From NCBI GenBank assembly GCA_049599475.1, contig JBMYOQ010000001.1, positions 64,001 through 128,000 of the forward strand: a stretch of DNA of 64,000 bases, in the 5' to 3' direction. Below are positions 40,951-58,449 of this stretch, piece after piece. The notes under the pieces were generated by a model. The model was not told where the DNA came from, made no database searches, and saw only the letters and a program-made list of their open reading frames with translations. Source of the stretch: Opitutales bacterium (GTDB lineage Bacteria > Verrucomicrobiota > Verrucomicrobiia > Opitutales > JABSRG01). A program made the translations under genes and the position numbers. Every line of letters begins with the position of its first letter. Positions within the stretch are counted from its first letter, which is position 1.

Positions 40951-41664
40951 ATGAATACATTTTTAGAAAAACCCACTCAGATGCACCTCGAAAACATCGC
41001 CTTTTACGGGCGTACTTTCGATGAATATTGTGCAATCTTCAATCTGGATCCAGCGGAGCTTGAGGGGAAGCGTATCCTCGATACCGCATCAGGTTCCGCG
41101 TCCTTCGCCGCTGAATCATTGCATCGCGGTTACGATGTGACGGCGAGCGATCCGCTCTACGACCGAAGTGCTCCGTCGCTCGGACGTATCGGATCTATGG
41201 ATATCGAGAGTGTAATAGCGAAAGCGCGCGAGGTGGAGAGTGTCTTTACCTTCAGTTATTATAAGTCGATTGATGAAGTCTACAAAGCGCGCTATAAGGC
41301 GATTCGAGGGTTTTTAGATGATTACCCGTCTGGACGAGCTCTAGGGCGTTATCAATGTGCATCTCTCCCGGACCTGCCCTTTAGCGATAACGCATTCGAT
41401 ATTGTATTGAATGGACACTTTTTATTCCTTTATGCCGAGCGGTTAGGAGACGCGTTTGTGTTTAACGCAGTGAGCGAGTTACTGCGCGTTTCCAGCCGAT
41501 CGGTATACCTTTACCCACTGATCCAGCTAAATGGTCAAAAGTATCCACGGCTGGATGAGCTCGTTAAAAAAGTCGAAAACAACGGTGTTACTGCTGAGTT
41601 TAGGTCTTTGGAGTTTGAGTTTTTTAAGGGAGCAGACACGTGCTTGATATTAAACCAACCATGA
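40951..41664 (+). CDS. Class I SAM-dependent methyltransferase
   Basis: ILDTASGSASF (motif I), VTASD, LPFSDNAFDIVL, ELLRV. Confidence 0.82.
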   Translation: MNTFLEKPTQMHLENIAFYGRTFDEYCAIFNLDPAELEGKRILDTASGSASFAAESLHRGYDVTASDPLYDRSAPSLGRIGSMDIESVIAKAREVESVFTFSYYKSIDEVYKARYKAIRGFLDDYPSGRALGRYQCASLPDLPFSDNAFDIVLNGHFLFLYAERLGDAFVFNAVSELLRVSSRSVYLYPLIQLNGQKYPRLDELVKKVENNGVTAEFRSLEFEFFKGADTCLILNQP

Positions 41665-43079
41665 AACGTATCGTAATCCTCGTTTTCGAAAAAGCTGAGC
41701 TGCTTGATTTTTGCGGCCCATTCGAGATCATATCGACGCTTGAGACCGAGGATCTTGAGCCTGTGGAAGTGGTGCTCTGGAATCCGCTGGAGTCTCGGGA
41801 AATAAAGTCGGCAAACGGTGCCAGCGTGATTGCCGATGAGATCGGTGAGCTCGCTGAAGACTCTATTGACTTGCTTGTTGTTCCGGGAGGAGAGGGCTCG
41901 CGTACTTTTTTGCGCAATAGTCTAGCAATGGGGCGGCTCAGTGTCGCCTTTGGTCTAAGTGAACGCGTGTTGAGTGTCTGCACCGGTGCTCGTATTTTGG
42001 CCGCTGCGGGAGTGCTCAAAGGCTTGTGTGCGACGACTCACTCCAGTGCGCAAGTGGACCTCGCGGAAAATTATCCCGAAGTGATCTGGGATTTTTCAAA
42101 GCGGTTTCACGATAATGGAAAGTGGATTATTTCCGCAGGAGTTGCTTCAGGAATTGATGCTGCCTTGTATTGGTTGGGAAATACATTTGGCGAGAGCCGT
42201 CGGCGAGATGTCGCGCAGGCGGTAGAGGTTCCTCTTGTGGGGAATATGGCGATCTTCGGCGGCTTGGCCTATCAGATTGTCGATGCTTTCTGTACAGATA
42301 AGTCCTTTTCGGGGAACCCGGCTGCTGTGTGTATCTTAGACGAATCGCTTCCCGATAGCATTTTACAGAAGATCGCTATGCAGCATAATCTCAGCGAGAC
42401 GGCTTATCTGAACTTTCTGGAGATACGTGAAGATTCGCCGGTATATGAACTGCGCTGGTTTACGCCGGAGGTAGAAGTTGATCTGTGCGGTCACGCAACA
42501 TTGGCATCGGCTTCCGTTGTTTTTGATCTCAACGCGGCTTGGGAGCAGGTGATCTTTGTGACACGCAGTGGAGAGCTCCTTGTGAAAAAAGGTGCGGAGG
42601 GCTTAGAAATGGATTTTCCAAAGCTAAAATACGAGGCGGCAACCGAGGCTGATCTACTTGGAGTGGGTCTGCCAGGCGAAGTCGTAGAGGTCCAAACGGG
42701 TATGGATTTGGCGGTGGTCGTGAACGAAGCTCAAGCTTTGATGGATTGGTCGCCTAATCTCTCGGCGGTCGAAAAGTTGCCGTATCGAGGATTGATCGTT
42801 ACAGCCAAGTATTCAGAGAATGGGTACGATTTTGTATCACGGTTTTTTGCTCCACAATCAGGTGTTCCCGAAGATCCGTTTACGGGGTCAGCCCACTGCT
42901 GGCTAGCTCCTTACTGGTGTGATCAGCTTGGCAAGGGAACGGTCACAGGATTACAGGCATCCAAACGTCAGGGCCGCGCAGTCTGTTCTGTGGTAGGTGA
43001 TCGCGTTTTATTGTCAGGTGCGGCTTCCTTATATTCGACCGGTTATATAGCGGTCGAGCGCCTGGTCGAAGACGAGTAG
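41661..43079 (+). CDS. DJ-1/PfpI domain fused to a PhzF-family isomerase
   Basis: N-terminal ELLD, VVPGG, SVCTGA, SAGVASGID; C-terminal DAF..GNPAAV, SETA, EVDLCGHATLA, EDPFTGSAH; single frame. Confidence 0.85.
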   Translation: MKRIVILVFEKAELLDFCGPFEIISTLETEDLEPVEVVLWNPLESREIKSANGASVIADEIGELAEDSIDLLVVPGGEGSRTFLRNSLAMGRLSVAFGLSERVLSVCTGARILAAAGVLKGLCATTHSSAQVDLAENYPEVIWDFSKRFHDNGKWIISAGVASGIDAALYWLGNTFGESRRRDVAQAVEVPLVGNMAIFGGLAYQIVDAFCTDKSFSGNPAAVCILDESLPDSILQKIAMQHNLSETAYLNFLEIREDSPVYELRWFTPEVEVDLCGHATLASASVVFDLNAAWEQVIFVTRSGELLVKKGAEGLEMDFPKLKYEAATEADLLGVGLPGEVVEVQTGMDLAVVVNEAQALMDWSPNLSAVEKLPYRGLIVTAKYSENGYDFVSRFFAPQSGVPEDPFTGSAHCWLAPYWCDQLGKGTVTGLQASKRQGRAVCSVVGDRVLLSGAASLYSTGYIAVERLVEDE

Positions 43080-44867: not shown

Positions 44868-45425
44868 ATGAAAAAGACTGCCTTAGCCTTCACCCTAGTC
44901 GCCGCCGTTCTTACTGGCGCTCAAATCGCTTCTGCTCAGGAAGCTCCTCAAATCAAGAAAAGCCCCGATGCATCCTTCACACAGACCGTGGGGCTGACCG
45001 AGATCACTGTAAAATATAACCGGCCCAGCGCGCGCGGTCGCGAGATTTTTGGCGGTTTGGTTCCTTACGACAAGGTGTGGCGCACGGGGGCTAACCAATC
45101 TACAGACATCACCTTCAGTGCACCCGTTATGTTTGGCGGCGAGTATGTCGAAGCAGGCACCTATGGCCTTTACACGATTCCTGGAAAGGACGGATGGAAG
45201 GCGATTCTTTACAGCGATGCAGATCTCTGGGGGACGGGTCGCGACTATGATGCTTCCAAGGAAGTCGTCCGAGTGGATGCTGCAGTTTTTGAGCTTTCGC
45301 CAGCGTTGGAGACCTTTGCAATCGGAGTAAATGCCATCACAGACACCTCTGCGATCCTGCATTTTGACTGGGTAAACACTCGGGCAGGTGTAGAAATTCG
45401 TGTAGGTGAAGCCGTAATGAAGTAG
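44868..45425 (+). CDS. DUF2911-like exported protein
   Basis: Signal peptide; YNRPSARGREIFGGLVPYDKVWRTGAN, GTYGLYTIP. Confidence 0.85.
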   Translation: MKKTALAFTLVAAVLTGAQIASAQEAPQIKKSPDASFTQTVGLTEITVKYNRPSARGREIFGGLVPYDKVWRTGANQSTDITFSAPVMFGGEYVEAGTYGLYTIPGKDGWKAILYSDADLWGTGRDYDASKEVVRVDAAVFELSPALETFAIGVNAITDTSAILHFDWVNTRAGVEIRVGEAVMK

Positions 45426-45471
45426 ACTTTCTTTGGAACCCCTGGCAGGTGTCAGGGGTTTCGTCATGTAC

Positions 45472-47931
45472 ATGGCCCGCATTATCTCCGCAATCTTGTT
45501 TGCATCCTCAATGGCTGCTTACGCAAATGTCTCTCCTAAAACGGTAGGAGAGATTCAGCACGGTATTCAGAAATTGGGTACCCTCGCGAGTGTCTTGTAT
45601 GTCGCTGCGCATCCCGACGATGAGAACACGCGGCTCATTGCTTACATGGCGAATGAGGCGAAAGCCGAGACGACATACTTATCTCTCACTCGGGGCGATG
45701 GCGGCCAGAATTTGTTGGGCGATGATCTGGGGCACAAACTCGGCGTAGCCCGTACTCATGAGCTCTTGGAAGCCAGGAAAATTGATGGGGGTAAGCAATT
45801 TTTCTCTCGTGCTAATGACTTCGGCTATTCCAAATCTGCAGTCGAATCTATCGAGATCTGGGGTAAGGACCAGGTGATGGCCGATACGGTGTGGGCGATC
45901 AGAGTGTTGCGCCCAGACATTATTATTAACCGATTTTCTACCGAGCCGGGGTTCACTCATGGGCACCACACTGCTTCGGCTCAGCTCGCCGTTGAAGCCT
46001 TTGAACTAGCTGCAGACCCAGAGCAATTTCCAGAACAGTTGAAGTGGGTCGAGCCGTGGCAGGCGAAGCGCATTGTCTGGAATACGTCCACTTGGTTTTA
46101 CCGGAGGCGCGGGCTCGACTTCGACCCGCGTTCGATGGTCTCTGTCGATACCGGAGTGTATAATCCTACTTTGGGAATGGCTTATTCTGAGATAGCCGCC
46201 CTGAGTCGCAGTGCGCACAAGACCCAGGGTTTCGGCGCAACCCCGCGCTTGGGCGAATCCAAAGAATATTTTGAGCACATTCGTGGACCCCAAGCGGAAA
46301 GTGATCTCTTTGACGGGGTTGATACGTCTTGGACCCGACTCGAGGGCGGTGAAGGTGTTGGAAAAATGGTGGCTAAGCTTCAGTCATCTTTCGACTCCAC
46401 GCGACCGGAGGCCAGTGTAGGAGAGTTGTTGAGCATTTATAGGGCGATTGGTGAACTCCCTGATGGATTTTGGAAGGAAAAGAAAATGGCTGAGGTGCGG
46501 GACTTAATCTTCGCGTGCATAGGTCTGGATGTCGAATGGCTGAGTTCCGAGAAAGAAGGTACGCCTGGCAGTCAAGTGCGAGGCGAGGTCTTGGCTGTCC
46601 AGCGGTCCTCATTTGACGTCAAGATTCAGGGGTCTTCTACAGGTGATGCGAAATCGATGCGTAAGAATGTGCTCGTCAAACTTCCGCTTCCAGTGACTGT
46701 TTCAGAGGACGCTCCTGTTTCTCAGCCTTACTGGCTGCGCAAGCCCGGGACCCTCGGGGCCTATGTCGTGGACGATCAAGAATGGATCGGAATGCCTGAA
46801 GGCCTGTCGCCCCTGGCAACTCCAGTCACGGTGACGGTAGCCGGTGAAGCCCTTACCATTATTCTGGAGCCTGAATTTAAATACAATGATCCGGTAGACG
46901 GGGAAGTGAAGGAGCGTTTTCAAATCACTCCTCCGGCGACGTTGAATTTGGATGAGCGCTTGCACATCGTGAGCTCCCCTGAACCCATCAGTGTCGGCGC
47001 CACTCTGCAGGTACGTGAGGATACTGCTCAAGGTGCTTTAGAGTTTAAGGCGAATGATGGTTGGACTGTGTCGCCGGAACGCGTGGAGTTTGAAGGGAAG
47101 CAAGGCGAAGAGATTCGTATTGAAACCGAGTGGGTCCCCTCGGGTGAACCGGGTCAAAGTAGTTTGCTCGGTAGTGTCCTTCTGGATGGAGAGACGATTG
47201 ATGTCGGCTATGAGCGCATGGAATATGACCATATTCCGGTCCAGACATTCTTCCCCAAAGCAGAAGCGAAGGGTATCCTTCTCGATGTCGAAAAGCGTGG
47301 GGAGCGTATTGGGTATATTGAAGGGGCTGGCGATGCCGTGCCTCAGGCTTTGGAGCGAATAGGGTATCAAGTAGATATGCTCACCGAAGCGGATCTCAGC
47401 TCTGATGTCTTGGAGCAGTATGATGCGGTTGTTCTCGGTATTCGTGCACTCAATACAATTGATCGTATCGGGTTTATGATGCCAACCTTGTTTGATTACG
47501 CGAAAGCTGGAGGGGTGTTGATACTTCAGTATAACACAGGGCACCGCTTGAAGACTACGGACTACTCGCCCTTCAGATTGAACATCTCGCGTGATCGCGT
47601 AACGGATGAATTTGCGGCCGTGGAGATCTTGGAGCCTGAACACCGGGTGTTAAATTACCCAAATAAAATAGGCGCCGCTGATTTTGAAAACTGGGTGCAA
47701 GAGCGTGGGCTGTATTTCCCGAATGCATGGGGTAAAGAATTTACTCCAATTTTTTCTATTGCGGATCCTGATGAATCGCCGAGTGAGGGTAGCCTTCTAA
47801 TAGCCAAATATGGCAAGGGATTTTATGTCTACAGTGGACTATCATGGTTTCGTCAGTTGCCGGCTGGCGTGCCCGGAGCGTATCGTATCTTTGCAAATAT
47901 CGTATCTTTAGGTAAGGCAGTAAATGAGTGA
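45472..47931 (+). CDS. Large exported PIG-L/LmbE-family Zn hydrolase
   Basis: Signal peptide; AHPDDE, TRGDGGQN, DFGYSK, HGHH; C-terminal GATase-like domain (YDAVVLGIRA, WVQERGLYF). Confidence 0.88.
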   Translation: MARIISAILFASSMAAYANVSPKTVGEIQHGIQKLGTLASVLYVAAHPDDENTRLIAYMANEAKAETTYLSLTRGDGGQNLLGDDLGHKLGVARTHELLEARKIDGGKQFFSRANDFGYSKSAVESIEIWGKDQVMADTVWAIRVLRPDIIINRFSTEPGFTHGHHTASAQLAVEAFELAADPEQFPEQLKWVEPWQAKRIVWNTSTWFYRRRGLDFDPRSMVSVDTGVYNPTLGMAYSEIAALSRSAHKTQGFGATPRLGESKEYFEHIRGPQAESDLFDGVDTSWTRLEGGEGVGKMVAKLQSSFDSTRPEASVGELLSIYRAIGELPDGFWKEKKMAEVRDLIFACIGLDVEWLSSEKEGTPGSQVRGEVLAVQRSSFDVKIQGSSTGDAKSMRKNVLVKLPLPVTVSEDAPVSQPYWLRKPGTLGAYVVDDQEWIGMPEGLSPLATPVTVTVAGEALTIILEPEFKYNDPVDGEVKERFQITPPATLNLDERLHIVSSPEPISVGATLQVREDTAQGALEFKANDGWTVSPERVEFEGKQGEEIRIETEWVPSGEPGQSSLLGSVLLDGETIDVGYERMEYDHIPVQTFFPKAEAKGILLDVEKRGERIGYIEGAGDAVPQALERIGYQVDMLTEADLSSDVLEQYDAVVLGIRALNTIDRIGFMMPTLFDYAKAGGVLILQYNTGHRLKTTDYSPFRLNISRDRVTDEFAAVEILEPEHRVLNYPNKIGAADFENWVQERGLYFPNAWGKEFTPIFSIADPDESPSEGSLLIAKYGKGFYVYSGLSWFRQLPAGVPGAYRIFANIVSLGKAVNE

Positions 47932-48034
47932 TTCCAAAAATCCAATTCCATGGGGAATGATTTATAGCGCGGTGCTGGCATGGCTCGTCGTTGTGATTGT
48001 GCTCATGTATGTGTTCTCGAAGGTGTTTTCATGA
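47924..48034 (+). CDS. Small membrane protein, 36 aa (MSDSKNPIPWGMIYSAVLAWLVVVIVLMYVFSKVFS)
   Basis: Translated by hand; one TM helix; overlaps the upstream stop and has an ATGA overlap with the symporter. Confidence 0.75.
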   Translation: MSDSKNPIPWGMIYSAVLAWLVVVIVLMYVFSKVFS

Positions 48035-49716
48035 GTGTCGTGGATTGGATTGTCCTCGTGGGGACTGTGTTGGGGATTGTCTTATACGGCGTCTGGGTCG
48101 GACAGCGTAATCGGAATTTAAATACTTATTTGCGCGGTGGTGACGGGCTGAAGTGGGGGACGATTGGCCTCTCGGTGATGGCCACACAGGCCTCCGCCAT
48201 CACCTTTTTATCTACACCAGGACAAGGCTATGAGAATGGACTGGCCTTTGTGCAAAATTATCTGGGGCTGCCCATTGCTCTGGTGATTATTTGTCTCTTT
48301 TTTATCCCGCTCTATTATAAGCTGAATGTTTCCACGGCCTACGAGCTGTTAGGGCAGCGGTTCGACCAGAAAACACGGCTTCTTGGGGCAGGTTTGTTTC
48401 TCGTGCAACGAGGGTTTGCCGCAGGGATCACCATTTATGCGCCAGCCATTATTGTTTCCACGCTCTTTGGCTGGGGGCTAAATATGACCATCGTAATCAC
48501 GGGTGTGCTGGTGATTTTATACACGGTCTCAGGAGGGACGCGTACAGTAAGTCTCACTCAGAAATACCAGATGCTCGTGATACTGATAGGGATGACGATT
48601 GCCTTTGGGTATGTTATCGCAGGTTTGCCACAAAACATTTCTCTAGGAGATGCCCTCTACTTAGCAGGCGTCCAAGGCCGACTCGAAGCAGTCAGTTTTT
48701 CCTTTGATCCGGAAGAGCGTTATACGATTTGGACGGGTCTTCTCGGTGGAACCTTTTTGGCGCTTTCTTACTTCGGTACGGATCAATCGCAGGTTCAGCG
48801 ATACTTGGCGGGCGGTTCGTCTGTGGCAAGCCGCCTGGGGCTGATGTTCAATGCTGTATTGAAGATTCCGATGCAGTTCGCCATTTTGCTCTTGGGTGCT
48901 CTTCTGTTCGTATTCTATCAGTTTGCGGGCTCACCGGTGTTTTTCAACGAAACTGCTCTCGATGGTATTCCTGAAGAGCGTTTGGTGGAAATTCAGAATG
49001 AGTATGATGCAAACCAGGAAACTCGGATACCTCTCTTGCACGATGTGCTGGAAGAGCGAAAGACCTTGGGTGAGCCTACTGACGAAACCTTGGGATATCT
49101 CGCGAGTGTCAATGACAAGTTGGATTCGAGCCGCGAGGAAATACGCGAGGAGATAAAACAGGTAGATGCTAAGGCGGACACGGAAGATGCTGATTATGTC
49201 TTTCTTACATTCGTGCTTAACAATCTTCCTGTGGGGCTGGTCGGCTTGCTCGTGGCAGTGATTTTCCTTGCTGCGATGTCCTCGACGGCGTCTGAGCTAA
49301 ATGCTTTGGCTTCTACAACAATGGTCGACGGCTATCGTGCTCTAATCCGAAAGAACGAGAGTGAGACGCACTACGTGTGGGTGGCGCGGGCTTTGACGCT
49401 TTTCTGGGGGGTGTTGGCTGTGGGGTTTGCCATGACTTTGACGCTCTTCGACAATCTCATTGAAGCAGTGAACATCATCGGTTCATTGTTTTACGGAGCG
49501 ATCCTGGGGCTCTTTTTGATCGCATTCTTCATACGCTGGGTTGGCGGAAGTGCCGCATTCTGGGGTGGCGTTCTTGCAGAATGTATCGTGCTCGGGCTGT
49601 ATTTCTCTGAGGTGGATATCGGCTACCTATGGTTTAATATGATTGGCTGCGGGATTACAGTTGTCCTAGCCATGGGTTTTCAGACCTTATTTTTCAAAAG
49701 TCCTCAGGAGGCCTAA
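48031..49716 (+). CDS. Sodium:solute symporter (SSS/SLC5)
   Basis: SVMATQASAITF, TAYELLGQRF, GTDQSQVQRYL, AAMSS; many TM helices. Confidence 0.93.
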   Translation: MSVVDWIVLVGTVLGIVLYGVWVGQRNRNLNTYLRGGDGLKWGTIGLSVMATQASAITFLSTPGQGYENGLAFVQNYLGLPIALVIICLFFIPLYYKLNVSTAYELLGQRFDQKTRLLGAGLFLVQRGFAAGITIYAPAIIVSTLFGWGLNMTIVITGVLVILYTVSGGTRTVSLTQKYQMLVILIGMTIAFGYVIAGLPQNISLGDALYLAGVQGRLEAVSFSFDPEERYTIWTGLLGGTFLALSYFGTDQSQVQRYLAGGSSVASRLGLMFNAVLKIPMQFAILLLGALLFVFYQFAGSPVFFNETALDGIPEERLVEIQNEYDANQETRIPLLHDVLEERKTLGEPTDETLGYLASVNDKLDSSREEIREEIKQVDAKADTEDADYVFLTFVLNNLPVGLVGLLVAVIFLAAMSSTASELNALASTTMVDGYRALIRKNESETHYVWVARALTLFWGVLAVGFAMTLTLFDNLIEAVNIIGSLFYGAILGLFLIAFFIRWVGGSAAFWGGVLAECIVLGLYFSEVDIGYLWFNMIGCGITVVLAMGFQTLFFKSPQEA

Positions 49717-49719
49717 GGA

Positions 49720-50493
49720 ATGTCAGAACCGGTAATATGTTTTGGTCAGCAACCCTGTGGATTTTTTCCCCGGCGCTTCTTGTGGTCCAAGATTTTGACT
49801 GCCCGGCGTCTTCAATCGGAAATTGGTGGGCGCATTGTATTTTTCTACCATGACAGCGATCACGATCCGCGAGAGACTCAGACATTTGTCTGTAATAAGG
49901 ATTCAGGCGCTGAACAGTGTCTCAATTTTACCTTCAAGAATAAGATCCAGAAAAAATATACGCCACTCTATGCTAAGGAACTCGTGGATGGATGGCAGCG
50001 TGATATGGCGCGACAGATGCCCAAGTTTGCCTCGGATACATGCATACAGTGGTTCCGAGATATTGACGCTACCAACATAGCGGATTTTTGCTTAGAGATG
50101 TATGAATCGATGGGTATCTTGGACGGGGTGGACGTGGTGAGGTCGAGCGATCCGGAATTCCGTGAATCGGCCTGCACTGTGGATGATTACTTCGTCGATA
50201 CCGAGTATGAAGGCGAGTGGGTGCGTGCGCGTCTCGCGGAGGCTGGGGCACTGCAGTTGCACCGCGGCGGTGGAAAATTTATCGAACTGAGTGGGCGCTC
50301 GTGGACTGCCGAACATATCAGTCCCACTCGGGATACGCGTCTTTTATGGATGCAGTCGGTGATCCAGTGCACCCATTACATCGCGGGAGCTGGCGAGCTC
50401 CAGTATTTGAATATGGACGAAGCGCCTGAAATAGAGTTTGTTACCCGTGATCCCATTGAAAATGCCTCGGCGGCATACATCCCCGAATCATGA
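49720..50493 (+). CDS. Short BshC-like protein (putative bacillithiol cysteine-adding enzyme)
   Basis: GQQ, FFYHDSDHD and YIAGAGELQY parallel the BshC motifs GQQ, FW...EDHD and Y.GGPGE..Y; coupled to bshB-bshA. Confidence 0.65.
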   Translation: MSEPVICFGQQPCGFFPRRFLWSKILTARRLQSEIGGRIVFFYHDSDHDPRETQTFVCNKDSGAEQCLNFTFKNKIQKKYTPLYAKELVDGWQRDMARQMPKFASDTCIQWFRDIDATNIADFCLEMYESMGILDGVDVVRSSDPEFRESACTVDDYFVDTEYEGEWVRARLAEAGALQLHRGGGKFIELSGRSWTAEHISPTRDTRLLWMQSVIQCTHYIAGAGELQYLNMDEAPEIEFVTRDPIENASAAYIPES

Positions 50494-51206
50494 GTGAGCC
50501 CAAGACCATCCTTGCTGTTGGCGCGCACCCGGACGACTTAGAGTTTGGCTGCGGTGGCATCCTGTTGAAGTCGGTTGGGGGCGGAGCACGCGTGCATTGC
50601 GTCGTCACTTCGCTTGGAGAGTCTGGCTCCGCTGGGACTCCGGAGCTTCGGAAGGTCGAAGCCCAGGAGGCCGCTCAGATGCTTGGACATGCGTCGGGCC
50701 CGCAGTTTTTGGACTTTGGCGGAGACGGCATGCAAATAGCCAGTAAAGAGAATGTGCTAAAAATCGCGCGTATCATTCGGGAGGTGAAACCGACCCATGT
50801 GTTGGCGCCGACAGTCGTGAAAAATCAACATCCCGACCATGTCGTAGTGGGTGAGGCTGTGCGAGAAGCCTGCCGCCTGGCGCGCTACGGTGGATTGGCA
50901 GTCTTGAAAGATCTCCCAGTTCACCGTGTCGAAGTGTTGGGGTATTACACCATTACTTCATCTGAAGAGCGCCCATCTGGCACGCGGATGTGTATTGATG
51001 TCAGCGAAGTTTTTGATGACTGGCAGAAACTGATGGCCTGCCATCAAACGCAGGTGTCTGCTCGGGGGTATATTGAATTGATCAATGCGCGGGCTCGCCA
51101 ATTGGGCATGGCTGCGGGAGCAGAGTATGCGCAGGAGATTTATCTCAACGATCCTCCGCTAGTAGAAGGTTTCGAAACAATCGAGCGTACTTTGCGTTCG
51201 TTTTAG
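50490..51206 (+). CDS. bshB: PIG-L family deacetylase, BshB-like
   Basis: LAVGAHPDDLEFG, GT..LR..EA, HPDH; adjacent to bshA. Confidence 0.8.
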   Translation: MSEPKTILAVGAHPDDLEFGCGGILLKSVGGGARVHCVVTSLGESGSAGTPELRKVEAQEAAQMLGHASGPQFLDFGGDGMQIASKENVLKIARIIREVKPTHVLAPTVVKNQHPDHVVVGEAVREACRLARYGGLAVLKDLPVHRVEVLGYYTITSSEERPSGTRMCIDVSEVFDDWQKLMACHQTQVSARGYIELINARARQLGMAAGAEYAQEIYLNDPPLVEGFETIERTLRSF

Positions 51207-51209
51207 AGT

Positions 51210-52349
51210 ATGGGTCGGAGCTTGAAAATTGGGGTCGTCTGCTATCCGAGTATCGGAGGTAGTGGTATATTGGCTACGCATCTCGGGTTGCTTTGTGCCA
51301 AGGAAGGGCACGAGGTACATTTTATCTCCTACGAGAAACCGGTGAGGCTCGATGTCGATCACCCCAATATTCATTTTCACTTGGTATCTGTTTCTGAGTA
51401 TTCACTTTTTAAATACTCCGACTACACATTGCCCTTATCTGTTAAAATAGCGGATATCTCTGAAGAGCATGATCTAGATGTTTTACACGTGCACTATGCG
51501 GTTCCCCATGCGACAGCAGCTCTGCTAGCGCGCCAAATGCGCCCGCATACACAACGTCCAGCTATTGTCACGACCTTGCATGGCACGGACACGACTCTCT
51601 TGGGTAAGGATCCGCACTATATGCCCATCATTAAATTTTCGATGGAGCAATCGGATGGGGTGACTACTGTTTCTCAAAGCCTCAAGCAGCAGACTATCGA
51701 TACTTTTGATGTGAAGCATCCGATTGAGGTAATTTATAATTTCTATGATCCAGCGCCTCCCGTTCGGTCTCGAGAAGAGGTGCGTGCTGATTTGGGAGTT
51801 GCTGAGTCAGAATTGATGCTCTTGCACATGTCGAACCTTCGGCCGGTGAAGCGTTTCGAGGATATTCTGCAAGCGTTTGCTTTGGTCGATAGTAGCTTGA
51901 ATTCTAAGCTGGTTGTAGCTGCAGGCGCTGACTCGCGATCGTTCAAAGCCGAAGCCGAGAGGTTGGGCGTTGGAGATCGGGTGATTTTTCGAGAGCATGT
52001 TGTAGCGATCAACGATTATCTGAATGCATGTGATATTGGAGTATATGCTTCTGAGCAGGAAAGCTTTGGATTAAGCATTTTGGAGACGATGTGCTATGGC
52101 CATCCGGTAGTCGCGACGCGAGCCGGGGGCATCCCCGAGGTTGTCGAAGATGGGGCGAGTGGGATTTTGGTCGAAATAGGCGATGTAAATGCTCTGTCGG
52201 CTGCAATGACTCGATTGATCCAAGATGCGGAGCTCAGAGCGTGCTATGGTGAACGCGGTGCGGCCGTGGCGGCATCCAAGTTTTCAGGAGCTCCGGTGAG
52301 GGATCAGTATTTAAAACTCTATTACGAAATGGTGGCGGCTTGTGAATAG
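51210..52349 (+). CDS. bshA: N-acetyl-alpha-D-glucosaminyl L-malate synthase (GT4)
   Basis: KIGVVCYPSIGGSG, LHVHYAVPHA, TTLHGTD, SNLRPVKR, ESFGL. Confidence 0.92.
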   Translation: MGRSLKIGVVCYPSIGGSGILATHLGLLCAKEGHEVHFISYEKPVRLDVDHPNIHFHLVSVSEYSLFKYSDYTLPLSVKIADISEEHDLDVLHVHYAVPHATAALLARQMRPHTQRPAIVTTLHGTDTTLLGKDPHYMPIIKFSMEQSDGVTTVSQSLKQQTIDTFDVKHPIEVIYNFYDPAPPVRSREEVRADLGVAESELMLLHMSNLRPVKRFEDILQAFALVDSSLNSKLVVAAGADSRSFKAEAERLGVGDRVIFREHVVAINDYLNACDIGVYASEQESFGLSILETMCYGHPVVATRAGGIPEVVEDGASGILVEIGDVNALSAAMTRLIQDAELRACYGERGAAVAASKFSGAPVRDQYLKLYYEMVAACE

Positions 52350-53199
52350 GAATCGGCTTTGGTTGTGCATTTTTTGTTGTTTGGTGGCCTGTTTAGGCGC
52401 TTTTGCTGATGCTGGGGATCAAGCATCTGAGAGCGAGGCTGCCTTGGAAAATGCTTACGACACTTTTAGAAAAGCGTCTTTAGCACGGAGAGTGTATCCT
52501 GTGCGGGCCTTAGCAAGGGCTGCTAGAGAAGCAGGGGATGCCGAGGCCTTGGAACAATATACGGAGCTCGAAGTTTCAGAGTATGCGCAACATCGGGCGG
52601 AGCTTACGGATTTTGCATTGTCAGTGCTGAAGGATACAACTGCCTTGGCTGTGAGCGCGAGTCGTTGGAGTGATTATCGATTGGATGATCTGGCGGCAGC
52701 TGTTCAGGCATTCCAGGCGAAGTTTCCTGAACATGAAGATCTGCCCGTACTACTGGATAAAATTGAGAGCTTGAAACGTGTTCGGGTAGGGGCGACTGCC
52801 CCGGCAATCACGGGCAATTCCCCGAGCGGGGAAACTTTGAGCTTGGCCGAATTTAAAGGGAAATACGTTTTGCTCGATTTTTGGGCCGGATGGTGCCCGC
52901 CATGTCGCGTAGAAAACGCCAACTATGTTGAGCTGTATTCAGAATATGGAGGCGATGAGTTTGAGATTTTAGCGATTTCACAGGACCGCCGTCCAGACCA
53001 GTGGAAGCGTGCAATTGCTCAGGATAAGGCGACATGGAAGCACATTTCCGATGTGAAAGGGATGGATAGTTCTCAGGCGAAGGCCTATGCGGTGACCGCT
53101 CTTCCTGCGAGTTTCCTGATCGATCCAGACGGGATAATCATCGCCAAAGATTTGCGTGGCGATGCTTTGGCCGAAAAATTGGCCGAAGTCCTTAAGTGA
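52342..53199 (+). CDS. Exported TlpA/ResA-like thiol-disulfide oxidoreductase
   Basis: Signal peptide; LLDFWAGWCPPC, ALPASFLIDPDG. Confidence 0.9.
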   Translation: MNRNRLWLCIFCCLVACLGAFADAGDQASESEAALENAYDTFRKASLARRVYPVRALARAAREAGDAEALEQYTELEVSEYAQHRAELTDFALSVLKDTTALAVSASRWSDYRLDDLAAAVQAFQAKFPEHEDLPVLLDKIESLKRVRVGATAPAITGNSPSGETLSLAEFKGKYVLLDFWAGWCPPCRVENANYVELYSEYGGDEFEILAISQDRRPDQWKRAIAQDKATWKHISDVKGMDSSQAKAYAVTALPASFLIDPDGIIIAKDLRGDALAEKLAEVLK

Positions 53200-53206
53200 T
53201 CTCCAT

Positions 53207-54106
53207 CTACACCATCTCTTGCAGAATCTGAGGCATTCTGCTGAGTGTGTGTTTTAGGGAGGCGATCGAAAGTTTGGACTCAGTATTGTCGGAGCCGAAA
53301 AGAATTTTCCAGGATGCTAGGCGCGTCCAGCGCTCCTCGGGGACCGGAGTCGTTTTTTCGATGTCGGTGATTCCGGTTGAGCGTAACAAAATGTCGGAGA
53401 TGTGGACTGCGGCCGCAGTCTTGGCGTAGTTGGGGGCGCGTGACGGTGTATTGTGGTAGCGCACGGCTTCGACGATTTCGTCGGCAAGGTTGTGCTTCTG
53501 TAGATAATACGCTCCGACCATAGCATGGTCCCAGCCGCCCAGAAGTTCACGTTCCCGTTTGCAGAATGCGATCGCCGATTCAGCCTCATAATCAATGAGT
53601 TGCTCGAACTCGTAGGGAAAGACGTAAGCCATGACGATTTTGCCCACGTTGTGGACGAGGCCAACGATGTAGTCGGTATCGTCCTCGTAGATCGTGTTGG
53701 TTAGCGAAAGAATCTCGCGGGTAAGTATGGCTGTACCGATACTATGCTGCCAGAGGTTGTCCCAGGATACGCCACTGAATTTTTCATTCAGTTTGTTGAG
53801 CTCCTCAATGACGGGTGTGGCTAGGGTAAGCTCCCGGATTTGGCGTAGTCCGAGATAAAATACAGCTTCCTCAATATTATTTACCTTACGATTTAGCCCA
53901 TAGAAAACTGAGTTTACCAGCTTGAGCAGGCGTGAGGTGAGGGAAGGGTCGCGCCGAATGACCTCAGAGATCTGCGAAGTCACAGAGTCTTCCGCGTTCA
54001 TCAATTCATTGAGCGCCTCGTTAATACTGCTCAGGGACGCAAGGCGGGGACAATTGCCGATTTTGGCAATTATATCCGCGTTAGTCCATTGTTTGACGGC
54101 GCTCAA
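53207..54106 (-). CDS. HDOD-domain signal protein
   Basis: DPSLTSRLLKLVNS, LWQHS, GLVHNVGK, DHAMVG. Confidence 0.88.
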   Translation of the reverse strand: MSAVKQWTNADIIAKIGNCPRLASLSSINEALNELMNAEDSVTSQISEVIRRDPSLTSRLLKLVNSVFYGLNRKVNNIEEAVFYLGLRQIRELTLATPVIEELNKLNEKFSGVSWDNLWQHSIGTAILTREILSLTNTIYEDDTDYIVGLVHNVGKIVMAYVFPYEFEQLIDYEAESAIAFCKRERELLGGWDHAMVGAYYLQKHNLADEIVEAVRYHNTPSRAPNYAKTAAAVHISDILLRSTGITDIEKTTPVPEERWTRLASWKILFGSDNTESKLSIASLKHTLSRMPQILQEMV

Positions 54107-54197
54107 GGCAGGTATTGTTTATAAAGTGAAGCAGCCGAGATCGCTGCCGACGAATCGGGACGCGCTCTCGGCTGCTGTGCAAATGGTAAGGTCTGTG

Positions 54198-55328
54198 TTA
54201 AGCAGAAACAGGTGCGGTCTTGGCTTCTTCGACTGAACTGAAAATCGACCAATCTTTGGATTCTGCGTAGCTTTTGCAGTCTTCAATGAGTTTGTCATTT
54301 CCAGCAATCGTGAGGCTGAGACCGAGGTCTTTGCTCATGTCGTGGGCGGTGATGAGCAGCTTAAGCGCGGACGTATCCAGCTTTGACATCTTGGTTCCAT
54401 CGATCACGACTTTGTTGAGTCCTGCATCTACGGCCGAGGATATCTGTGGCTTGAGATAGCCCGAAATTTCGTTTTGAACATTCGGAGTCAAGTTCTCCGG
54501 TAGATGGATAATGAAGAAGCTTCCATCGTGTTTAAAGTATTTGCCCGAGGTATCGAGGTTGATGGCTTTCGCCAGCTTGTTGTCGAGGTCCTCAAAGTCG
54601 ATTGGCTTGGTAACGATTGCTGAGAAACCGTTTTGCGTCGCCTGTTGCTGTAGATGAGTTTCGCTCTTCACTGCGAGGCCAAAAATCGGGATGTATTTGG
54701 TCTTCATATTGGAGCGCAATATGCGGAACAGTGTAAACGCTGCTTCTTCAGGAAGGCTCAGACTGATCATGATGGCGTCTGGCTTTTTGTTTTGGCAATA
54801 ATCTATGGCCTCTCCAGTTGAGTTGACTCCAGCGACTTGCCAATTTGGTCCATTTAGACCTGATGAGATTTGGTCAATAATAGCTGGCTTGTCGTCCACC
54901 ACTAGGATGAAACACGCGTCGTTGATGCTCTTCTGGCGGCTCTGTTTTTCTTCCTTCGGGCGAAGGTCGATAACGCGGCCTGCTTTCTCGATGAGAGCCT
55001 CCTCTTTGAAAGGCTTTACGACATAATCGCGGATACCGATCTTTGCGATTTTCATGACGTTCTCACGGCCCGCTTCTGCAGTGAGCATGATCACAGGAAT
55101 GCCCTTGAGGTCCGGATCCGATTTCAGCTTGGTGAGCATTTCTACGCCATCCATGACCGGCATGGTAACGTCGAGTAAAATTAGATCAGGCTTCTCCTTT
55201 GCGGCGGCAGCAAGGCCTTCGACTCCGTTACTCCCTTCAACAATATCGACATCAAAGGTTTTGAAGGCCTTCTTAACAATCATACGGACGGCTTTGGAGT
55301 CGTCCACTGTTAGAATTTTGAGTCCCAT
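54198..55328 (-). CDS. Response regulator (REC, degenerate REC, STAS-like)
   Basis: VDDS..LLDVTMP..KPF; second REC without the Asp (IMISLSLP); C-terminal VVIDG...LDTSAL. Confidence 0.82.
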   Translation of the reverse strand: MGLKILTVDDSKAVRMIVKKAFKTFDVDIVEGSNGVEGLAAAAKEKPDLILLDVTMPVMDGVEMLTKLKSDPDLKGIPVIMLTAEAGRENVMKIAKIGIRDYVVKPFKEEALIEKAGRVIDLRPKEEKQSRQKSINDACFILVVDDKPAIIDQISSGLNGPNWQVAGVNSTGEAIDYCQNKKPDAIMISLSLPEEAAFTLFRILRSNMKTKYIPIFGLAVKSETHLQQQATQNGFSAIVTKPIDFEDLDNKLAKAINLDTSGKYFKHDGSFFIIHLPENLTPNVQNEISGYLKPQISSAVDAGLNKVVIDGTKMSKLDTSALKLLITAHDMSKDLGLSLTIAGNDKLIEDCKSYAESKDWSIFSSVEEAKTAPVSA

Positions 55329-55340
55329 TATAGTCTCTCC

Positions 55341-55880
55341 TTATTTATCAGCAGGTTTCATCAAAAGGTCGCAAGTGAGCACATCGCCCATTGCTTTAAA
55401 TTGGAAAACGCGTCGCATGACCTCTGAGGTCGTTTCGACGCTGAATTGAGATCCCCTTAAAATCGAAGGGATCGTGAGGCGACAGTTGTATCCTATGTCG
55501 CAAAGTCCGTTTTTGAATGTGCCAGCGATCATGTTGGCCATTTCGCCGAGGGCGTCATTTACAGTGCTGTCGGGCTCTTCGTCGAGCTCGTCTGGTTCCA
55601 TTCCTAAGAAGTTACATGTGACGTCGCGGGCTAGGCTATCGTGCATGTATAGGTAAAGCACGCCGTTTAGGCTCCCGATGAAGCCGACCATACTGACGAC
55701 CGCTGAGTCGCTAGTCACCGGGGCTTCCCTGCCTTCGCCCTCTCCATTTGTGGGTTTTACCATCCAAGATTCTTGGTAGCTGATGTGGCAGCCCGGCAGC
55801 ATCGTCTCGAAAAATTTGTCAACAGCACCCTGGACCATAGTGTCCAGTGTTTCAGGTGAAAAGGGTATCAGTGTATCCAT
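55341..55880 (-). CDS. cheX: CheX-family phosphatase
   Basis: DALGEMANMIAG (ExxN motif), LTIPSILRG. Confidence 0.85.
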   Translation of the reverse strand: MDTLIPFSPETLDTMVQGAVDKFFETMLPGCHISYQESWMVKPTNGEGEGREAPVTSDSAVVSMVGFIGSLNGVLYLYMHDSLARDVTCNFLGMEPDELDEEPDSTVNDALGEMANMIAGTFKNGLCDIGYNCRLTIPSILRGSQFSVETTSEVMRRVFQFKAMGDVLTCDLLMKPADK

Positions 55881-56006
55881 GATGTCGTGTGTGAAGTTAG
55901 CCAGTCTGCCTGGGGTTTCGGCGACTTGATGTGCCCCGTTGTTTGAGTGTAATTCGTCTCAGGTAGGGGTGTTCTTGATCGATAATTATAAGTTATTTGC
56001 GTTATT

Positions 56007-56867
56007 TCACAGCTCTGGAGCTGCTACCTTCCTATTAGGAATTAAAGATCCTTTCACCTCTTGGACGATGTCGTGTGCTTCAAGGATCAGTTCTTGCATC
56101 TCTAGATCATCGAATTCGAAGAACTTTAATGCGTCTTGTGAGCCGAAAATGGCCCAGGCATCGCGCCCATAGTTAAGACCGATGTTTGCGATTACGAAGT
56201 TTGCCAGGTAGATGAGATGGGCCATACTCTCGTGAGATTCGGCTTTCTCCGGGAAATACTGATGTGTCACCGGGAGAGTGATATCTTCGGGGAAGCTCCA
56301 GCTCTCTAGAAGGGTGCCTGCGAGCATGGCATGATTGAATCCAAGGATCGCTTCTTCGGCTTCTATCAAAGTCATATCTCGCTTGCTCTGCATATCGAAG
56401 ACTTGCTCGTAAGTGCCTTGGATTTTTTCGTTTATGACGAGTTTGCCCATGGAATGTAGGAGACCGACGGTGTATGCGGTATCTGCTTCTTCATCGAGGC
56501 GTTTTGCGAGGCTCTCCATGACGAGACCGGTAGCCACTGAGTTTTCCCAGAGTTCGCCGTCGTCGATGCTGAAATGCTCTACAGGTTTGTTTAAAGATTC
56601 TTTGCCACAGATGGTCGCGACTATCTTGTAGACTTCGCGTTGGCCGAGTCTGTTTACGGCTGCCTCAAGGCTTCCGGTGGTGAGTCCGTAGTAGCCTGAG
56701 TTACAAATTTTCAGCACCTGAGCCGAGAGTGAGGCATCGAGCTTGATGAGCGCGATTACGTCATCGAGGGTGGCGTTATCGTCTCTCAAGAGATCCATCA
56801 ACTGTGGAAGGATCTGGAGTGCTGGGGAAATCGAATCGATATCCTTGATTAGATCTTCGATTTTCAT
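56007..56867 (-). CDS. HDOD-domain signal protein
   Basis: DASLSAQVLKICNS, AVNRLG, GLLHSMGK, LESWSFP. Confidence 0.88.
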   Translation of the reverse strand: MKIEDLIKDIDSISPALQILPQLMDLLRDDNATLDDVIALIKLDASLSAQVLKICNSGYYGLTTGSLEAAVNRLGQREVYKIVATICGKESLNKPVEHFSIDDGELWENSVATGLVMESLAKRLDEEADTAYTVGLLHSMGKLVINEKIQGTYEQVFDMQSKRDMTLIEAEEAILGFNHAMLAGTLLESWSFPEDITLPVTHQYFPEKAESHESMAHLIYLANFVIANIGLNYGRDAWAIFGSQDALKFFEFDDLEMQELILEAHDIVQEVKGSLIPNRKVAAPEL

Positions 56868-57385
56868 AACAGGCTGTATTTCTTTGATTGGTTTGGCATC
56901 TTCAATTTTACGGTTCCGTCTTTCATTGACAGATGCACAGTGCGGTTGTTGAGACCGCCAACGTTTTCGGCTTGGATCTTGAGGCCCAATTTATCCAAAT
57001 AATTTCGGATAGCATCCTCATTGCGTGCGCCAATTTTGAAGAAGTCGCTTTTCTGGATTACCGAGGCCCCTCCCGCGATCATGATTTTGAGTGAGGGTAA
57101 CTTGGCTCCGAGTCCTTCGAGCTCGCTGAAGAAATATTTGCATCCGGTGTCGCAAAACATCGAGGGGCGACCGCGTGCCTTCTCGGAGGAAAGGGACGAA
57201 TCCGGCAGCATAAAGTGGAGGATCCCGCCAACATACGTGGAGGGGTCGAATGCGATCACGCCGATGCATGATCCTAAAGCGTAGGTACTAATAATTTGGC
57301 TTCTATTATTAGAAGCTGCCATATCGCCGACGCCTACGACGATATGTTCAGTAAATATTCCGACTAGTGATGGAGCGCCTGACAC
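56864..57385 (-). CDS. cheD: Chemoreceptor glutamine deamidase
   Basis: LGSCIG, HFMLP, AGGA, IGARN, VGG...RT. Confidence 0.92.
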   Translation of the reverse strand: MSGAPSLVGIFTEHIVVGVGDMAASNNRSQIISTYALGSCIGVIAFDPSTYVGGILHFMLPDSSLSSEKARGRPSMFCDTGCKYFFSELEGLGAKLPSLKIMIAGGASVIQKSDFFKIGARNEDAIRNYLDKLGLKIQAENVGGLNNRTVHLSMKDGTVKLKMPNQSKKYSLL

Positions 57386-57465
57386 GTTTGTCTGAAAGTT
57401 TGGGTTAAAATCTGTGGTTTAGGAGGGCCGGGCTTTCGCGGAGGAGAGTTTGGTTTTGAAAGAAA

Positions 57466-57936
57466 TTATAGGCCCGATACTGCGGGAGTCGGGCGGTTTA
57501 GGTGCTCCTGGATTTGTTGGAGCAGTTGGACTTTCTGATAAATCGGAGCGTCTTGAGCGATCTGCATCGATTTTCCTTCTAAGTCTGTAATTTTAAAAGA
57601 TTGTTGGCCGGAAGGGTCGGTGTGAGGTGTGATGGTCCACTCTCCGCTGGAGAGGGGTGCGCGTTCTCCATTGAGTCCCTTTTGGTCCTGAAGAATCTCA
57701 AGTTTGAGGTTTTGAGATATTTCCAGAAGCTGGCTGTCGTTGATTTTAGGGTTCAGCTCGAAAATTTCTTGGATGCTTTTGGCGTCTTTTATCCCCTGTT
57801 CATTCAGAATTTCTGAGAATGGGGTGACTTTCTGATTGGGGTCTGCCTTGGCCGCTGGTTGTGGTTGCGCAGTGGCTTCGCCGAGAATGGAGCGTCCGGC
57901 GCTTACGAGAATATTTGCGATTAGGCCATGCATCAT
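57466..57936 (-). CDS. Hypothetical protein
   Basis: 156-aa ORF that fills the gap between cheW and cheD on the same strand; no motif recognised. Confidence 0.6.
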   Translation of the reverse strand: MMHGLIANILVSAGRSILGEATAQPQPAAKADPNQKVTPFSEILNEQGIKDAKSIQEIFELNPKINDSQLLEISQNLKLEILQDQKGLNGERAPLSSGEWTITPHTDPSGQQSFKITDLEGKSMQIAQDAPIYQKVQLLQQIQEHLNRPTPAVSGL

Positions 57937-57948
57937 AATCTTGGGGAG

Positions 57949-58449
57949 TTAGAAGCTCTCCTCTACGACCACCTTATCGATATCTAGGAGAGAGATTAGA
58001 TTGCCCTTGGTCTTGGCTAGGCCGATGACGTGGGCAGTTGTTTGCGAGTTTCCGACGCTTGGATCGGATTCAAAATCGTCTTCTTGGATGCGCATCACTT
58101 CGTCCACCGCATCTACAATGAGTCCGGCAGTGGATTCCTGGCGTTCATGATCTTCAACCATGACCACGACGATGCAGGTGCGCTCGTCGAATGTGTCCTC
58201 GCCGATTGCAAACTTGAGACGCATGTCGATGACAGGAATTACCTTTCCGCGAAGGTTCATTATGCCCTTAACGTATTCTGGGCGATGGGGCACGGGGGTG
58301 ATCGGTTGCATCCGAATGATCTCGCGGATGTGATTCACTGAGATCCCATACATCTCGGCTCCGAGGTGGAAACTCAGGTATTTTCCCGGTTGAAAGGTTT
58401 TGGTGGTCGGTGTCTGTGAAACAGAGGGATCTTCGAGCGTAGCTGACAT
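57949..58449 (-). CDS. cheW: Chemotaxis coupling protein
   Basis: ITPVP..PEYVKGIMNLRGKVIPVIDMR, GLIVDAVDEV. Confidence 0.93.
   Translation of the reverse strand: MSATLEDPSVSQTPTTKTFQPGKYLSFHLGAEMYGISVNHIREIIRMQPITPVPHRPEYVKGIMNLRGKVIPVIDMRLKFAIGEDTFDERTCIVVVMVEDHERQESTAGLIVDAVDEVMRIQEDDFESDPSVGNSQTTAHVIGLAKTKGNLISLLDIDKVVVEESF

Follow-up and report, generated by a model that had tools for sequence, protein, structure and literature searches.

In the 64,000-nucleotide (nt) window examined here, a stretch of DNA from an Opitutales bacterium, we found a row of same-strand genes that, though apparently not described before, is a genuine and conserved variant of the bacillithiol (BSH) pathway (all coordinates are window positions). 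The conserved unit reads DUF2911 - PIG-L hydrolase - membrane peptide - sodium:solute symporter (SSS) - gene of a protein of 257 amino acids (aa) - (bshB) - bshA, the brackets marking a gene that some lineages have lost. The block of exported and transport genes is, with high confidence, tied to a bacillithiol-type pathway. The features of the row are as follows.

44868..45425, + strand: DUF2911 protein of 185 aa that opens the unit, its N-terminus resembling a signal peptide (PF11138, E 4e-50)
45435..45462, + strand: 12-bp hairpin between the DUF2911 and PIG-L genes, with no U-tract after it (folding energy)
45472..47931, + strand: predicted exported PIG-L/LmbE metallo-amidohydrolase, 819 aa (PF02585)
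47924..48034, + strand: single-helix membrane peptide, 36 aa, of no family; a short hydrophobic open reading frame (ORF) conserved in place
48031..49716, + strand: SSS, 561 aa (TIGR00813, 221.9 bits against a cut-off of 184)
49720..50493, + strand: half-size homologue of BshC, 257 aa, unannotated, corresponding to the catalytic core of BshC (fold and distribution)
50490..51206, + strand: predicted BshB-like cytoplasmic deacetylase, 238 aa, PIG-L domain (best family TIGR04001, BshB1)
51210..52349, + strand: BshA, N-acetylglucosaminyl-malate (GlcNAc-malate) synthase by family (TIGR03999, 416.1 bits against a cut-off of 273.7)
52342..53199, + strand: TlpA/ResA-like predicted exported thioredoxin (CPPC), overlapping bshA (PF00578/PF08534)

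Conservation and limits of the unit

An earlier note on this DNA had described seven same-strand ORFs from the PIG-L gene to tlpA (45472-53199), and all seven are present on the + strand, overlapping or 3 nt apart. On the 5' side, the PIG-L and peptide genes overlap by 8 nt, the peptide and SSS genes by 4 nt, and a 3-nt gap precedes the 257-aa gene; on the 3' side, the latter overlaps bshB by 4 nt, bshB and bshA are separated by 3 nt, and bshA overlaps tlpA by 8 nt. The family scan upheld the calls of PIG-L, SSS, BshA and TlpA-like proteins, returned BshB1 as the best family of the 238-aa protein at a score below cut-off, and left the 257-aa and 36-aa proteins without family.

Neighbours of the 257-aa gene were counted in the best 80 of at least 486 confirmed GTDB loci, a sample that leans to close relatives, each denominator (59-68 loci) comprising only the loci with flank of sufficient length. 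By their titles, the related loci include Opitutaceae, Puniceicoccaceae, Chthoniobacterales (Ca. Udaeobacter), Limisphaerales, Phycisphaerae, Gemmataceae and Obscuribacterales, and the named relatives nearest to the window proteins are, among the matches listed, Verrucomicrobiota and for the most part Opitutales. The synteny that the earlier note had proposed to check is kept in most of these 80 loci, far from chance: bshA is a neighbour in 67/68, SSS lies directly 5' in 59/64, the large PIG-L gene occurs in 53/59, DUF2911 in 55/59 and bshB in 45/68, while TlpA adjoins bshA in a single locus of 65, that one from the same genus. Because of these counts the unit includes DUF2911 and excludes TlpA, which is a local addition. 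Thus the limits first drawn hold from the PIG-L gene through bshA, but the true start lies one gene earlier, at the DUF2911 gene. This gene had been overlooked, as had the fact that BshC is of half size and that some lineages have lost bshB.

The DUF2911 stop lies 46 nt from the ATG of the PIG-L gene, and the hairpin region between them (45420-45480) folds at -24.4 kcal/mol with a z of -2.8, 3 of 200 shuffles being equally good. The DUF2911 protein of the window lacks the helical, TPR-like C-terminal tail of about 105 aa found in most homologues; a few second copies are also short. Two genomes, G215 and G246 (L108, L109, L113, L114), have the PIG-L gene relocated from the operon, and there the PIG-L and SSS genes each retain a DUF2911 copy.

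Association of the exported block with bshA

Co-occurrence was surveyed in samples of 301 genomes, of 111 from the class of G348 and of 131 from the phylum of G349, the genome of locus L012, titled Phycisphaerae. The hydrolase is present in 21, 11 and 19 of them, respectively; all 51 carriers have bshA, and it was found in 0 of 441 bshA-negative genomes. The earlier note had staked its reading on the PIG-L/SSS block not being distributed independently of bshA, and the reading withstood this test in three lineages. DUF2911, found in 12 of the 111 genomes, follows the same line, 11 of the 12 being the bshA-positive ones. The link persists over large distances between the genes (G215, G246, G271), and 5 of 5 freshwater Opitutae with no block at the bsh locus have an intact one elsewhere. 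The dependence between bshA and the hydrolase is one-way, bshA also occurring in genomes that lack the hydrolase. Of the 131 genomes sampled from the phylum of G349, 68 have a bshA that scores above the TIGR03999 cut-off. Among 80 metagenome loci retrieved with a Rufibacter homologue as query, the half-size gene lies downstream in 15.

A remote subfamily of large PIG-L proteins was also seen in the phylum of G349 (L233-L239, frames of 780-1200 aa, about 30% identity), all in bshA-positive genomes; in one of them an SSS gene adjoins on the opposite strand.

A half-size homologue of BshC

The call of the 257-aa protein as BshC-like stands on its fold and its complementary distribution. It shows the class-I-synthetase-like Rossmann core of the B. 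subtilis enzyme (4WBD) with the motif blocks kept, lacks the N-terminal 80 or so residues and the long helical region, and, when aligned to two canonical BshC proteins, shows gaps some 80 and 100 residues long. The coiled-coil region and the length of about 520-540 aa are both missing, the longest helix of the model having at most 17 residues. TIGR03998/PF10079 gave no match at E 0.01 for this protein or for five divergent homologues. All carriers of the half-size gene have bshA (20/20 and 11/11), and beside the same bshA/bshB genes half-size and canonical BshC follow a strict either-or distribution. Four cysteines specific to the family, C7, C13, C124 and C217, are kept in 95-100% of 120 homologues. 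On fold and distribution, the 257-aa protein very probably replaces BshC and would then represent a distinct but homologous family with the function of BshC.

Fusions of the half-size BshC to a PIG-L domain occur in four database proteins (P0122, P0123, P0128, P0130), the domain being BshB-like in the three scored; other fusions, to SSS or glycosyltransferase, may be read-through artefacts.

The exported hydrolase, the peptide and the symporter

The 819-aa protein consists of a signal peptide, a catalytic domain, beta-sandwich domains and a C-terminal fold like class I glutamine amidotransferases (GATase). As outlined in PMC4101496, the LmbE/PIG-L superfamily has an HxD1D2 + H motif, a spacer of 97-148 residues and a Rossmann fold; the protein belongs to it by this measure, with H47-P-D49-D50 and H166 present in 118-120 of 120 homologues. 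Its model (predicted local distance difference test, pLDDT, 91.8) matches MshB best, then the chitobiose deacetylases (DAC), LnmX and BC1534, and the matches also list the GATase-like folds 2gk3 and 2a9v. There is a single cysteine, none in the GATase-like domain. It scores 48.7 bits on Mca (cut-off 277) and 19.7 on BshB2 (cut-off 195), and so falls in neither family. A hydrophobic signal-like N-terminus occurs in nearly all homologues listed, with bshB or without it, the starts of three Melainabacteria lying beyond coverage. Bacteroidota names are frequent among the homologues at 45-49% identity.

Between the PIG-L and SSS genes, a short hydrophobic ORF of 30-55 aa is found in 116 of 122 loci, and the 36-aa peptide probably accompanies the symporter as a small partner. 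In the Melainabacteria loci L065, L069 and L076, about 5 nt separate PIG-L from SSS with no separate peptide ORF, perhaps because peptide and symporter form a single fused protein there. The nearest solved relatives of the symporter are the anion transporters SMCT1, SMVT, NIS and 5NV9 (E 3e-42 to 2e-37), with SGLT1 behind them (1e-24).

BshB and its loss

The 238-aa protein carries the metal motif HxDD + H (HPDD at 13, HPDH at 114, with H117) and reaches 137.9 bits on TIGR04001 against a cut-off of 182.5, for which it is classed as BshB-like and not as a member. In 22 of 68 loci the half-size gene runs directly into bshA, and a quick tree built from 73 proteins shows three switches in the presence of bshB, at least two of them on strongly supported branches. 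No BshB orthologue was found by a PF02585 search of 15 bshB-less genomes of unreported completeness, one of which, G430, is a single contig of 5.04 Mb. The exported PIG-L is the sole match in eight; the other seven hold nine further small PIG-L proteins. The five of these with a BshB1 score stand at 36-63 bits, where the operon BshB has 138, and two of the further proteins adjoin surface-sugar genes. Since these genomes keep bshA, some enzyme must deacetylate its product, and the exported PIG-L is, as judged from sequence, the only conserved candidate.

G271 and G105 (L111, L112) have the canonical order methyltransferase - bshC - bshB - bshA, in which the first gene may encode an NmbA-like methyltransferase; G000, a 96.6% complete genome, holds no match to it.

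A proposed salvage cycle

We propose, with moderate confidence and at about even chances, that the row directs the cytoplasmic synthesis of a bacillithiol-type thiol and salvages the glucosaminyl-malate core of this thiol from the periplasm. BshA, by its family membership, would join GlcNAc and malate; BshB, in spite of its family score below cut-off, may strip the acetyl group; the 257-aa protein would in all probability add cysteine as BshC does, as its fold and distribution suggest. The exported zinc hydrolase, in a step we consider slightly favoured, would cut the amide of a periplasmic N-acylated glucosaminyl-malate, either GlcNAc-malate or spent bacillithiol and S-conjugates, own or foreign, and release glucosaminyl-malate (GlcN-malate). 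The symporter with its small peptide might then, at chances we put as roughly balanced, import GlcN-malate, which half-size BshC would re-use. DUF2911 is likely a periplasmic helper, for binding or as a scaffold, and is the weakest step. Where bshB is absent, deacetylation may be supplied by the exported enzyme. Only tentatively do we extend this to an extracytoplasmic arm of bacillithiol with a first transporter for the sugar-malate core, in which bshB-less lineages (Ca. Udaeobacter, other Chthoniobacterales and some Melainabacteria) might route synthesis through the periplasm: GlcNAc-malate would exit, the exported enzyme would deacetylate it, the symporter would return the product, and the minimal, coiled-coil-free 257-aa BshC would finish it.

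Several points weigh against the proposed cycle. Kin are not independent, hence the counts and Fisher values overstate the number of events. The call of export is a prediction from hydrophobic N-termini. The 257-aa protein has only 16% sequence identity to BshC, and its profile comparison with one canonical BshC is non-significant (E 0.1). The exported PIG-L is absent from G105 and from 50 of 69 bshA-positive genomes in the phylum of G349, so synthesis does not generally depend on it. No bsh gene appears in 13 of 17 metagenome loci with about 10 kb on both sides, SSS being kept in 11 of the 13. No exporter for GlcNAc-malate or conjugates lies within the unit. G000 yielded none of the partners known for conjugation and recycling: PRK13291 (which we take to be the BstA/YfiT transferase), BrxA/B and YtxJ gave no match there, and YpdA only matches below cut-off. 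Glutathione synthetase has no match in that genome either. Its locus L216 (G000:C11) holds a frame of 776 aa in which a YpdA-like flavoprotein domain is joined with a NapH-like ferredoxin membrane domain; this frame scores 149 bits on TIGR04018, below cut-off, and is a candidate disulfide reductase.

Alternative explanations

The same co-occurrence counts would fit a pathway where the bsh genes make bacillithiol, the symporter imports the intact thiol, its disulfide or GlcNAc-malate, the hydrolase does no more than destroy conjugates, and the place of a lost BshB is taken by some cytoplasmic deacetylase that escaped recognition. The substrate of the symporter is not readable from its sequence, and seven of the 15 bshB-less genomes do hold other small PIG-L proteins. 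However, the low BshB1 scores of the five and the surface-sugar neighbours of two speak against it, and the tight coupling of hydrolase and symporter through the peptide gene hints at a shared compound, the product of the one serving as substrate for the other; we regard this alternative as unlikely. A further alternative supposes that the half-size enzyme adds a non-cysteine group, so that a different N-acyl-glucosaminyl-malate and not bacillithiol is made and cycled. The half length, the missing BshC family match, the family-specific cysteines and the failure to find known BSH partners in G000 agree with it, but the strict either-or distribution with canonical BshC, the pairing of the exported module with canonical BshC in G271, and the retained core fold and motif blocks make it improbable.

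Improbable to a similar degree is an independent cassette of DUF2911, PIG-L and SSS for amino-sugar deacetylation and uptake, travelling with the bsh genes or sharing an aerobic lifestyle with them. The chitobiose deacetylases among the fold matches, the metagenome loci with no bsh gene near the hydrolase and a patchy distribution over phyla, which suggests cassette transfer, favour such a cassette; it is opposed by the complete absence of the hydrolase from the 441 bshA-negative genomes, by co-occurrence that persists when unlinked, and by a row with no conserved glycoside hydrolase or outer-membrane sugar transporter. The earlier note had inferred that PIG-L and TlpA may process conjugates or disulfides in the periplasm, which as a thiol-disulfide cycle would have TlpA reduce or isomerise BSH disulfides. 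In spite of the tlpA/bshA overlap, the CPPC motif and the signal-like N-terminus, the near absence of TlpA from related loci leaves this role, and disulfide processing in the periplasm, unsupported and very improbable.

Comparison with known systems

Among the known systems closest to the row is the BshA-BshB-BshC pathway of B. subtilis (4WBD; TIGR03999, TIGR04001, TIGR03998/PF10079), from which the row differs in a BshC counterpart of 257 aa instead of about 520-540 that all BshC profiles miss, in a bshB dispensable in some lineages, and in the exported and transport genes attached. Canonical BshC dimerises through a coiled coil, and the thiol-conjugate amidases Bca and Mca act in the cytoplasm, doubling as deacetylases, as a 2018 review states (PMC5790435). 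Bca/BshB2, Mca and MshB resemble the 819-aa protein in the HxDD + H motif and the tie to a glucosamine-based thiol pathway. Mca is its best NCBIfam match and MshB its best fold match, its scores falling well short of the cut-offs for Mca, MshB and BshB; what sets it apart from these enzymes is its length, its signal peptide, its beta-sandwich domains, a GATase-like domain devoid of cysteine, and a second motif that reads HG(H/Q)H, not HPDH. To the anion SSS proteins there is only a distant likeness, and the conserved partner peptide is particular to the present row. In glutathione turnover, too, the thiol or its conjugate is cut outside the cytoplasm and a building block is taken back up; however, the thiol is different and the proteins unrelated, and here hydrolase, importer and synthesis genes stand in one row.

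A literature search covering few subscription journals and no supplements found no account of a short BshC or of a DUF2911/PIG-L/SSS/bsh module, and nothing linking bacillithiol with a symporter and PIG-L or with Udaeobacter; DUF2911 appeared in it in secretome context only. The main text of Hiras et al. 2018 (PMC6282198) lists Verrucomicrobia and Planctomycetes as having no documented or predicted low-molecular-weight thiol, although ortholog lists in its supplement may bear on this; its search demanded BshC orthologues of similar length and would therefore miss a 257-aa BshC. The gene row thus predicts a redox thiol for a phylum without any predicted before, and the frequency of bshA in the phylum of G349 contrasts with the listing of Planctomycetes as thiol-less. 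In the 2018 review (PMC5790435), the BshC reaction is described as never reconstituted and BSH import and export as an open question. A natural half-size BshC offers a small test protein and indicates dispensable parts, while the hydrolase, symporter, peptide and DUF2911 protein become concrete candidates for BSH traffic, DUF2911 gaining a pathway context.

Other features of the window

On the - strand, a chemotaxis-like cluster (53207-58449), unrelated to the bsh finding, converges on tlpA; by sequence it contains CheW-like, CheD-like and CheX-like proteins, a response regulator and two HDOD proteins, the family scan having covered the first HDOD protein. At 41640-43079, a DJ-1/PfpI domain is fused with a PhzF-like domain.
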